Positions 7,000 to 49,431 of a stretch of 64,000 nt of DNA are shown in pieces (positions within the stretch are counted from its first letter, which is position 1; every line of letters begins with the position of its first letter). The notes under the pieces are model-generated. The model saw only the letters and a program-made list of their open reading frames with translations, did no database searches and was not told the origin of the DNA. The position numbers were made by a program, and so were the translations under genes. The stretch is from positions 352,001 through 416,000 of the forward strand of contig CAVUQO010000002.1 in the NCBI GenBank assembly GCA_963743635.1. Reading direction: 5' to 3'. This DNA is from Candidatus Babeliales bacterium. Lineage in GTDB: Bacteria; Babelota; Babeliae; Babelales; Vermiphilaceae.

Positions 7000-7050
7000 A
7001 AAAAAAATTAGTCTTGATACAGAACACAAAAGAACAAAAGGTTCCTTATT

Positions 7051-40891: not shown

Positions 40892-41770
40892 TTATTCCTT
40901 GTTGCTCTTGAGTGCATTGCAGCGTTCTGTAATTGCCGTAGTCAAAAGAGAAGACATTTTGTCCACTAAATGATTCACGCTTTCGTTATGAGCGAGTAAT
41001 TCTTCAAGACTAAGAGTTTTTTGTGGAGCCTGACTACTTGAGGAACCATTGTTGGGTGCAGTAGCAACAGGTGCTGCAGAGGTTGCAGTTGGCTGAGCAT
41101 TATTGTTGTTATTATTCTTTTTTGCAGGAATCATTGCTTGCAATACGAGTGCATCACGTTGCATTTTGAGGTTCGCAAGTTGTACTTTGAACATAGTCAT
41201 TTGAAGAAGTTCCAAAAGTTGTTGCTTTTCTTCTTCAGGCGTTAGTTTCTTTGTTTACTGTTTTGCTTCTCGTGGTGCTTGCGAACTTTCTCCTTTTTCC
41301 ATATTGGTAGGCGCTCGCGTTGTTTTCAGTTGGAGGAGTTTGTCTCTGCGTGTGGTATTGCTATTTTTGAAAAATTCCCGCGTCGTTCTTCGAAGCTCTT
41401 TGGCCACGAGGGAATACGCTTGAGCGAGATATTGTCCATTTTCGTTAATTAATTGTGCTGTTTCTTCGCTTGTGTCAACACCTGCTGCGGCGATCATTGC
41501 GGAGGTAGTGGATAGTATAGATTCTGCACGTGTGGATTGCTCACGCAAGGGGGTAGCCTCGATTGAACCTTCTGGAGAAAATAGTGTTATTAGTTCGAGG
41601 TTTCTTTGGATCGCGATTGCTTGCAGGCATTGGAGGGTGAGCCGTAGCTGCATGGAATCGGACATTACTTCTTGCGGTGCTTGTAAAATTTCGCCTTTTT
41701 CCATAGCGCGCATGGAAGAAGTGCTGAGAAGAATGAGCAGAGATAATGATAATAGGCGTGCGTGTTTCAT
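40892..41770 (-). CDS. Secreted helical/low-complexity orphan protein (probably one gene split near 41255)
   Basis: Signal ending SMRA-MEKGE; downstream ORF lacks its own good start; Asn run and S/T/A/P linker. Confidence 0.6.
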
Positions 41771-48173: not shown

Positions 48174-48390
48174 TAATTTTCCTTGGTTCTTAACATATTG
48201 AAGAATAAATGCTATATAAACTCGATTTATAGTATCAAAGTAGACATTTTTATTCAATGATTAGGAGGAAATAGACCTTTATATATTCATAGTATGACTT
48301 AGAAAATGAATGCGATTTACAATGGCCTTATATTGTAATCGAAAAAAAGTATTTAAATGTTATGAAGATATCTTAATGAAAGAATAACTA

Positions 48391-49431
48391 ATGAAAAAAT
48401 CACTATCAATACTGGTATTAGCACTTGCAATATCAGCGAACGCATACGCAGCAGAAGTAAGTACCTTCAGTGAACATGCGATCATATTCTCAGGCAATGC
48501 AACGAAAGAGTTGGCGCAAAGTATAGCGGACTACTTGGGAGTCAATCTAGGTTCGGCGATCGTATCAAAATTTAATGATGGAGAAATCCAGATCCAGGCG
48601 CAGGAAAGTGTGCGGGGTAAGGATGTCTTTATCGTGCAATCAACCTGCCATACTGTAACCCAAAGCGTGAATGATAACTTGATGGAATTATTCTTGCTCA
48701 TTCGTACTATGAAGCGAGCATCGGCCGCAAGCATTACAATCGTTATCCCCTACTATGGTTATGCACGGCAAGATCGCAAAGCGATGTCTCGCGTGCCAAT
48801 TTCCGCAGCGGACGTTGCAATGATGTTAGAAGAAGGTGGTGCCGATCGCGTGTTAACGATCGATTTACACTGCGGACAAATTCAAGGGTTTTTCCGTAAT
48901 GTACCGGTTGACAACTTATTCTCATCGCCGATTTTTATCGACTATTTTGTAAACAAACAACTCGATAACGTGGTGGTGGTTTCTCCCGATGCAGGCGGCG
49001 TGGATCGTGCGTATAAGTTTGCACAACAATTGCGCAAAAAAGGCGTACCTGCTGAAATGGCGCTCATTAGCAAACGTCGCGCAAGCGCGGGCGTCATTGA
49101 ATCGATGTATTTGATTGGTGATGTGAATGGCGCTGATGCGATTATTGTTGATGATATTTGTGATACGGCAGGAACGCTAGTCAAGGCTGCGCAATTGCTC
49201 AAAGATAATGGTGCGCGTCGCGTGTTTGCGGTCATTCCGCACGGAGTCTTTTCGGGCAATGCACTCGATAAGATTCGTAAATCAGTGATTTGCGAAATGG
49301 TGATTGCAGATACCGTTCCATTGCGCGAGCAAGCGCCAGACAATCTCGTCGTTCTTTCAGTGAGTAAGTTATTGGGCGATGCGATATTGCGCATTTATAA
49401 CGGCAATTCGGTATCTGCATTGTTTGACTAA
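48391..49431 (+). CDS. prs: Ribose-phosphate pyrophosphokinase with N-terminal Sec signal peptide
   Basis: FNDGE, ESVRGKDV, PYYGYARQDRK, DLHCGQIQGFF, VSPDAGG, IIVDDICDTAGTL; preceded by MKKSLSILVLALAISANAYA. Confidence 0.95.
   Translation: MKKSLSILVLALAISANAYAAEVSTFSEHAIIFSGNATKELAQSIADYLGVNLGSAIVSKFNDGEIQIQAQESVRGKDVFIVQSTCHTVTQSVNDNLMELFLLIRTMKRASAASITIVIPYYGYARQDRKAMSRVPISAADVAMMLEEGGADRVLTIDLHCGQIQGFFRNVPVDNLFSSPIFIDYFVNKQLDNVVVVSPDAGGVDRAYKFAQQLRKKGVPAEMALISKRRASAGVIESMYLIGDVNGADAIIVDDICDTAGTLVKAAQLLKDNGARRVFAVIPHGVFSGNALDKIRKSVICEMVIADTVPLREQAPDNLVVLSVSKLLGDAILRIYNGNSVSALFD

Follow-up and report, generated by a model that had tools for sequence, protein, structure and literature searches.

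Phosphoribosyl pyrophosphate (PRPP) synthase is regarded as a housekeeping enzyme confined strictly to the cytoplasm, and in eukaryotic cells both the synthesis and the salvage of purines are limited by the supply of PRPP. Here we describe a gene, referred to as leader-Prs, in a 64,000-nucleotide stretch of the genome of a Candidatus Babeliales bacterium (assembly GCA_963743635.1, contig CAVUQO010000002.1, positions 352,001 to 416,000 of the forward strand; this whole stretch is called the window below). Its product shares the two-domain fold and all catalytic motifs of ordinary bacterial PRPP synthases (Prs), such as those of E. coli (6asv/4s2u) and B. subtilis (1dkr), but differs from E. coli Prs in carrying a 20-residue Sec-type leader. 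Based on the sequence comparisons described below, we lean slightly towards the reading that leader-Prs is exported by the Sec pathway and is one of a clade of protist-like, leader-bearing PRPP synthases whose genes pass laterally between bacteria that live inside protists. The Babeliales belong to the Dependentiae (TM6), characterized in parts of PMC4776705 and PMC6561590 as a phylum of intracellular protist parasites.

The closest published idea is a hexokinase with a signal peptide in the microsporidian Nematocida, which passages of PMC5113988 propose to stimulate nucleotide production in the host by steering its carbon into PRPP and nucleotides; according to the same passages, microsporidia have no PRPP synthase at all. 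As described there, the hexokinase is a functional analogue of leader-Prs: a core metabolic kinase that carries a signal peptide, in an intracellular parasite that steals nucleotides and has NTT transporters. The two enzymes differ, the hexokinase acting before PRPP is formed, and its owner is a eukaryote with endoplasmic reticulum-type secretion. No publication on a PRPP synthase with a signal peptide was found in the main texts of open-access papers and preprints, and the terms 'PRPP', 'pyrophosphokinase' and 'signal peptide' occur nowhere in the text of the TM6 comparative-genomics paper. Automated annotations name the members of the clade simply ribose-phosphate pyrophosphokinase. Another system for comparison is the bacterial NAD-salvage cluster, in which prs occurs under the control of NrtR with NadV or PncB as partner. 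Leader-Prs of relatives likewise adjoins a Nudix plus NrtR_WHD regulator, but its partner there is a type I adenine phosphoribosyltransferase (Apt) fused to an ITPase-like domain, both enzymes carry leaders, and the genome studied here is without NrtR.

Leader-Prs and its predicted signal peptide

From residue 31 onwards the window protein was a class I Prs end to end in both Pfam and NCBIfam. Pfam recognized Pribosyltran_N, Pribosyl_synth and Pribosyltran domains, with PF14572 extending to residue 345, and the NCBIfam models PRK01259 and TIGR01251 scored 408.9 bits (cut-off 297) and 360.3 bits (cut-off 113), respectively. The best solved relative was E. coli Prs (6asv), with 321.7 bits over residues 32–346, and human PRPS1 scored about 262. 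In the alignment with E. coli Prs the motifs YYGYARQDRK, DLHCGQIQGFF and VVSPDAGGV, the KRR loop and VDDICDTAGT were intact, and the invariant columns of a further alignment (A1) include R126, Q127, D128, K130 and H160 in addition to those given in Table 1. An AlphaFold2 model based on 30 aligned sequences reached a mean predicted local distance difference test (pLDDT) score of 88.1 and a predicted template modelling (pTM) score of 0.85, with the usual flexible loop (residues 125–136) disordered. The gene codes for an active-looking class I PRPP synthase. Recent acquisition of foreign DNA was unsupported by composition: the GC content of the gene is 0.458 and its GC content at third codon positions 0.450, compared with genome means of 0.428 (standard deviation 0.028) and 0.389 (standard deviation 0.052).

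The N-terminal residues, read directly from the sequence, are MKKSLSILVLALAISANAYAAEV. They follow the textbook layout of a Sec/signal peptidase I (SPase I) leader, with a basic n-region, an h-region within the usual 7–15 residues, and small residues at positions −3 and −1. The leader is of this plain type, and no further secretion signal was visible in the window protein. The initial annotation of this DNA, made by a reader who saw only its letters and its open reading frames (ORFs), had described a Sec-type leader in front of a complete Prs domain with intact motifs; the profile searches and the E. coli Prs alignment confirmed the domain and its motifs. It had also stated that no alternative Met precedes IIFSGN, the first β-strand. 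In the window sequence, none of the codons ATG, GTG and TTG occurs in frame from M1 up to this strand; the first alternative is a TTG at L41, already inside the Prs domain, so the true start does not lie downstream of the h-region. The in-frame TAA two codons upstream prevents the ORF from extending further in the 5′ direction.

Table 1. Features of leader-Prs and its flanking genes, in window coordinates (a slash marks the predicted cleavage site).
Feature	Position	Strand	Basis and remarks
In-frame TAA stop	48385–48387	+	Two codons 5′ of the ATG; sequence read directly
Leader-Prs ORF	48391–49431	+	346 aa; N-terminus MKKSLSILVLALAISANAYA/AEV
Predicted Sec/SPase I signal peptide, residues 1–20	48391–48450	+	n-region MKK; h-region SLSILVLALAIS (12 residues); c-region ANAYA, A-Y-A at −3 to −1
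Mature class I ribose-phosphate diphosphokinase (PRPP synthase), residues 21–346 plus stop codon	48451–49431	+	Pfam, NCBIfam, E. coli Prs alignment, AlphaFold2
Pribosyltran_N domain, residues 31–150	48481–48840	+	PF13793, E 3.1e-52, profile 2–117 of 117
Loop signature RVPISAADVA, residues 134–143	48790–48819	+	Common to protist PRS; ordinary bacterial Prs read R.PI[ST]AK..A
KRR of catalytic flexible loop, K228–R230	49072–49080	+	Alignment to E. coli Prs; K228 and R230 nearly invariant in A1
PRPP/ribose-5-phosphate binding loop VDDICDTAGT, V253–T262	49147–49176	+	E. coli Prs alignment; D254, D255, D258 and T259 invariant in A1
Flanking orphan ORF, 184 aa	47703–48257	−	No Pfam family; hydrophobic leader after a probably over-extended start; no paralogue
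Flanking orphan ORF, 169 aa	49645–50154	−	No Pfam family; leader-like N-terminus MTHIARLLLLLPLTLEA; one 30%-identical paralogue at C2:118409-118903

Conservation of the leader

Leaders were called with a heuristic of our own, not SignalP, in which a protein was leader-like if it had an N-terminal extension of at least 15 aa and a hydrophobic core. By this measure, 132 of the 143 scorable members of the clade that contains the window protein were leader-like, versus none of 32 in its eukaryotic sister group and three of 83 other Prs; the orthologs thus keep the signal, a point on which the initial annotation had staked its reading. The extension alone was present in 137 of the 143 anchored rows of this 145-row clade. 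In the 132 leaders the hydrophobic run had a median length of 13 residues (range 10–23), K or R stood just before it in 128, and a small-x-small site was present in 130. A lipoprotein was considered and rejected, as no Cys lies near the cleavage site in the window protein and only three of the 132 leaders were lipobox-like.

The 120 best homologs were 61–92% identical to the window protein and mostly 340–380 aa long, and nearly all began with one or two basic residues, then a hydrophobic stretch and a small-x-small site. Among homologs the leader drifts in sequence, and its kind is kept across sequences 44–86% identical. Many orthologs have their predicted cleavage site directly against the first β-strand, for example ...NA/QIMLFSGN. 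Most of the leaderless exceptions were shorter start calls for which the leader is present in another record (P0079 vs P0073, P0080 vs P0072). The window provided an internal control for the heuristic: positions 7000–29000 are an ordinary ribosomal-protein/EF-G/EF-Tu region in which all ORFs were leader-negative, and the negatives in the window included ribosomal proteins, EF-Tu, EF-G and GAPDH. Two leader-bearing members of the clade, P0122 (547 aa) and P0148 (478 aa), have 130–200 extra residues after the Prs domain and may be fusions.

Probable protist affinity of the leader-bearing clade

The loop signature RVPISAADVA had been described in the initial annotation as protist-like, and it proved identical in the named PRPP synthases (PRS) of Gregarina, Neospora, Eimeria, Cardiosporidium and Thalassiosira. 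Compared with RRVRSARVPITAKVVA in E. coli Prs, the corresponding stretch of the window protein (RKAMS-RVPISAADVA) is one residue shorter and has Lys replaced by Ala-Asp. The nearest leaderless proteins were eukaryotic, namely those of Gregarina (two), Neospora, Eimeria, Cardiosporidium, Thalassiosira profunda and the cryptophytes Guillardia and Hemiselmis, together with MMETSP and MERC transcripts. The genes for protist PRS with the RVPISA[AS]D loop are nuclear and lie on large scaffolds (0.2–3 Mb for several of them); the proteins are 43–57% identical to the window protein and have an identical or near-identical loop signature. They differ from it in having either no N-terminal extension or a long, non-hydrophobic one (median 56 aa), none of the 32 scored above being Sec-leader-like.

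A FastTree phylogeny was built from 283 rows, comprising the window protein, 14 Dependentiae orthologs, 119 of the 120 homologs (one shorter than 300 aa was dropped), 145 of 150 library representatives (five shorter than 290 aa were dropped), and four native Dependentiae Prs. The window protein fell inside a leader clade of 145 rows (support 94), which was joined to a eukaryotic sister group of 33 rows at support 85. All 168 rows with SAAD, SASD or AAAD in the shared loop RVPISA[AS]D[VI]A were found in one 185-row clade (support 98) and none outside it. A quick maximum-likelihood (ML) tree of 105 rows under the posterior mean site frequency (PMSF) approach again joined the leader clade with the loop-sharing eukaryotes (support 85). 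In a careful ML tree of 82 rows (LG+C20+F+G4 PMSF), 24 of 25 leader rows formed one clade (94/91) that was sister to ten cryptophyte PRS (99/98), with opisthokont-type PRPS further out; the 25th leader row, P0167, was a long branch elsewhere. Tree rows were picked and groups named after earlier trees had been seen. Leader-Prs stood apart from ordinary bacterial Prs in every tree built, whether by FastTree, quick ML or careful ML.

The approximately unbiased (AU) test did not reject a tree in which the SAAD-type eukaryotes were constrained to be monophyletic without the bacteria (p=0.617). As this constrained tree was 6.9 log-likelihood (lnL) units better than the free-search tree, the 99/98 sister relation to cryptophytes should not be leaned on. 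The protist affinity of the leader clade is favoured by the trees and the loop signature, and is not formally secured.

Distribution and the native Prs of Dependentiae

Leader-Prs was present in 16 of 261 Dependentiae genomes searched, scattered over eight families. This number includes the source genome (G000), which spans 1.45 Mb in three contigs and is estimated to be 85% complete; the genomes of the relatives span 0.7–2.4 Mb. Leader-bearing members outside the Dependentiae came from Chlamydiae, Chlamydiota, Parachlamydiaceae, Rhabdochlamydiaceae, 'Verrucomicrobia' metagenome-assembled genomes (MAGs), and one alphaproteobacterial MAG. The window DNA occurs in peat and soil metagenome runs, one of which could be its source, and no RNA run is listed as containing it.

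The native Dependentiae Prs, the only Prs of most relatives, belongs to the same enzyme family (TIGR01251) but is leaderless, 283–325 aa long, and 24–34% identical to leader-Prs. As the native enzyme is only about 30% identical and leaderless, leader-Prs is a separate enzyme and not the phylum's own Prs. A second, native-type Prs above the TIGR01251 cut-off (139–245 bits) was found in seven of ten further leader-Prs genomes, and G010 also holds both types, bringing the other leader-Prs genomes with a separate leaderless Prs to eight of 11.

Gene neighbourhood of leader-Prs in relatives

A Nudix plus NrtR_WHD regulator adjoins leader-Prs in four of 14 Dependentiae loci (L002, L025, L027, L029) and in the Chlamydiota locus L053. 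A leader-bearing NTPase_I-T gene adjoins it in six of the 14 (L024, L025/L043, L026, L027, L029, L030) and again in L053. In the four full-length Dependentiae copies NTPase_I-T is fused to a phosphoribosyltransferase domain, which in L024, the one copy checked with NCBIfam, scores as adenine phosphoribosyltransferase (TIGR01090, 188.1 bits, cut-off 185.85). In G010, a leader-bearing Apt and an XPRT-like gene lie beside leader-Prs. That the PRPP maker and the PRPP user both carry leaders argues for chemistry outside the cytoplasm, and the linkage to leader-bearing Apt suggests salvage outside the cytoplasm no less than a stimulation of synthesis in the host.

A set of three genes, leader-bearing NTPase_I-T (ITPase/XTPase-like, often Apt-fused), NrtR and leader-Prs, recurs in Babeliales and in a Chlamydiota MAG (L043 1946–4966; L053 2459–4960; L027, L029, L024, L030) and looks like a laterally moving module. 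This linked module was ruled out as an explanation for the source genome because NrtR and NTPase_I-T are absent there. In G205 (L028 2538–4010), a divergent amidophosphoribosyltransferase (PurF)-like protein lies directly downstream of leader-Prs; it scored 129.7 bits with TIGR01134, below the cut-off of 350, and has a hydrophobic N-terminus (MGKRYFFLLAALYAW...).

Leader proteins and nucleotide transport in the source genome

Four TLC/NTT nucleotide transporters were found in the source genome, as expected of the nucleotide-scavenging parasite that the initial annotation had envisaged. One NTT gene lies within 2 kb of a leaderless upp and a gene for a 216-aa phosphoribosyltransferase-like protein, forming a small nucleotide-acquisition cluster (G000:C3:406696-410586). 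Signal peptidase I (TIGR02227) and two PF00263 secretins are present, so that the machinery for leader cleavage and a path across the outer membrane exist. At G000:C3:523097-524905 (L122/L123), the signal peptidase I domain occurs twice in tandem in one 668-aa frame.

The share of hydrophobic N-termini called by the heuristic in this genome (686 of 1342 ORFs) is in line with that of Chromulinavorax destructans, for which a passage of PMC6561590 gives 44% by Phobius. Stricter criteria were passed by 279 ORFs, 278 of which were scanned with Pfam in two halves (139 at E ≤ 1e-5 and 139 at E ≤ 1e-8). A Pfam family was assigned to 100 of them (58 and 42, respectively). The domains in this set included four RING (RING-H2), one IBR (RBR-like), SET, a C2H2 zinc finger array, ankyrin, WD40 and LRR, and further families were Sel1, DnaJ, PLA2_B, PAF-AH, a sulfotransferase, many GNATs and envelope proteins; at least three members were false positives. 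Prs was the only nucleotide-pathway enzyme in the set. Examples of the eukaryote-type leader proteins are found at L141:7006-8298, L142:18654-19895, L143:1108-2196, L155:11281-12474, L155:10265-11239, L197:7297-7881 and L170:18853-19689. As ubiquitin-ligase and histone-methyltransferase domains act only in a eukaryotic cell, leader proteins plausibly reach the host, and those of eukaryotic type are probably effectors aimed at the host by means of a Sec leader and not of a type III or type IV signal.

Possible export and role of the enzyme and alternative explanations

We hold a fuller reading of these data tentatively, at somewhat less than even weight. In this reading, a eukaryote-derived PRPP synthase refitted with a Sec leader would be a secreted metabolic effector that unrelated phyla of bacteria infecting protists, Dependentiae and Chlamydiota among them, pass on to one another, in some cases together with NrtR and an exported ITPase-like/Apt protein as the three genes of one mobile module. 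The enzyme would make PRPP in the host or at the parasite surface for nucleotide harvest. It would be the bacterial counterpart of the secreted microsporidian hexokinase and the first exported PRPP synthase. As to history and action, the main reading, to which we lean slightly, is that a protist-type PRS gene was probably taken up by an intracellular bacterium, where it acquired a Sec leader, and then spread among Dependentiae, Chlamydiota and other host-associated lineages. Cleavage by SPase I at AYA/AE would probably free the enzyme outside the bacterial cytoplasm, where it might act in the periplasm or, by way of the secretin pathway or vesicles, in the host cytosol. There it would turn host ribose-5-phosphate and ATP into PRPP. 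Host enzymes or, in relatives, the co-encoded exported adenine phosphoribosyltransferase would then form more nucleotides, and the parasite would import these through its four NTT transporters.

If this holds, leader-Prs would be a concrete, testable metabolic effector in Dependentiae and environmental chlamydiae, two groups in which a function is known for hardly any effector, and two unrelated intracellular phyla would be linked by shared, laterally moving genes for nucleotide acquisition. A single soluble enzyme with a standard assay would also offer a simple entry to secretion in Dependentiae.

Several observations weigh against the export reading and its fuller form. The main difficulty is that leader-Prs was the sole prs found in the 85%-complete source genome, with the window protein and native Prs as queries, yet this genome encodes a genuine leaderless uracil phosphoribosyltransferase (Upp; NF001097, 215.5 bits, cut-off 114), which needs cytoplasmic PRPP. 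This difficulty might be resolved by a second gene in the missing 15%, by partial retention of the enzyme in the cytoplasm, or by uptake of PRPP. A second Prs was likewise not found in three other leader-Prs genomes that are 92–97% complete (G205, G085, G119). The availability of ATP and ribose-5-phosphate outside the cytoplasm is assumed. The source genome gave no match to NrtR (PF21906) or NTPase_I-T (PF01931), and no leader-bearing phosphoribosyltransferase was found in it. The heuristic was positive for about half of its ORFs of at least 100 aa (the 686 of 1342 mentioned above), and its false positives include CTP synthase, Ldh and saccharopine dehydrogenase, whose domains start at residue 3–8. 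In the AlphaFold2 model, residues 2–29 form one continuous helix running into β-strand 30–34, which fits a cleaved signal and an anchor alike and does not discriminate between them. As for a eukaryotic derivation, a tree with the leader clade placed among ordinary bacteria was 46.2 lnL units worse and was not formally rejected by the AU test (p-AU 0.070).

With respect to origin, the eukaryotic source that the initial annotation had considered possible is favoured by the loop signature and the trees, and the two AU tests leave it unproven. Transfer from eukaryote to bacterium is, we infer, the more economical of the two directions, given that only a few, scattered bacteria carry the gene and that all of these are host-associated; the AU tests settle neither direction. 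The initial annotation had also named a case that would speak against its reading, a sole prs branching with ordinary bacterial enzymes. The first part of this case stands to the extent that no second signal-less prs was found in the genome at its present completeness; the second does not, as no tree groups the enzyme with ordinary bacterial Prs.

Among the alternatives, an unlikely one is that the exported enzyme resides in the periplasm as a salvage enzyme, with host ATP, ribose-5-phosphate and bases diffusing in, exported phosphoribosyltransferases using PRPP on the spot, and host metabolism left unmanipulated. The plain Sec/SPase I leader fits this explanation, as do the leader-bearing Apt or ITPase-like-Apt fusions adjoining leader-Prs in six of 14 Dependentiae loci and the Chlamydiota locus and the Apt and XPRT-like genes of G010. 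In the source genome, however, the lack of matches to any leader-bearing phosphoribosyltransferase, NTPase_I-T or NrtR leaves no visible periplasmic consumer of PRPP, and other leader proteins of this genome (RING, IBR, SET) must pass beyond the periplasm to act.

We consider it similarly improbable that leader-Prs is a housekeeping Prs with a membrane tether, in which an uncleaved anchor or weak signal would hold a catalytic domain serving the cell's own cytoplasmic PRPP needs after replacement of the native Prs. This would account for the sole prs in the source genome and in three of ten other leader-Prs genomes and for the leaderless Upp; 50 of the 132 clade leaders contain an uncharged stretch of at least 22 residues, and the single long helix in the AlphaFold2 model is compatible with an anchor. 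By the positive-inside rule, which is established knowledge, the charges nevertheless predict that the domain lies outside, with a K/R-rich n-region leading into the hydrophobic run and acidic residues following that run (AEVSTFSE). The short median hydrophobic run and the cleavage-type site in nearly all leaders also speak for a cleaved signal, eight of the 11 other genomes with leader-Prs have a leaderless Prs besides, and in the many orthologs whose cleavage site abuts the first β-strand an uncleaved leader would pin the fold to the membrane. An annotation artefact, in which translation would really begin farther downstream or the ORF would be unexpressed, making the leader meaningless, is hardly credible and was rejected: public gene calls do sometimes start at the internal Met of MLF[ST]GN (P0049, P0108), but the start codon and upstream stop described above leave no room for it, a start at L41 would remove the conserved FSGN strand, and the leader features are kept across widely diverged sequences.

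Flanking genes in the window

Leader-Prs stands alone on the plus strand of the window among minus-strand orphan ORFs with leaders. The initial annotation had described both flanks as secreted orphans, and the two flanking ORFs (Table 1) were indeed without a Pfam family and hydrophobic at their N-termini. They are part of a minus-strand run of about a dozen ORFs of 155–195 aa between positions 41255 and 54592, nearly all with leader-like N-termini. No Pfam family was found in the five ORFs of this run that were scanned. The array was rejected as a paralogous family, as 16 small ORFs, compared by BLASTP with all ORFs of the genome, gave no mutual matches at E ≤ 1e-4. Alike in size, strand and leaders but dissimilar in sequence, these ORFs may represent a secreted family that evolves fast, or an effector nursery.

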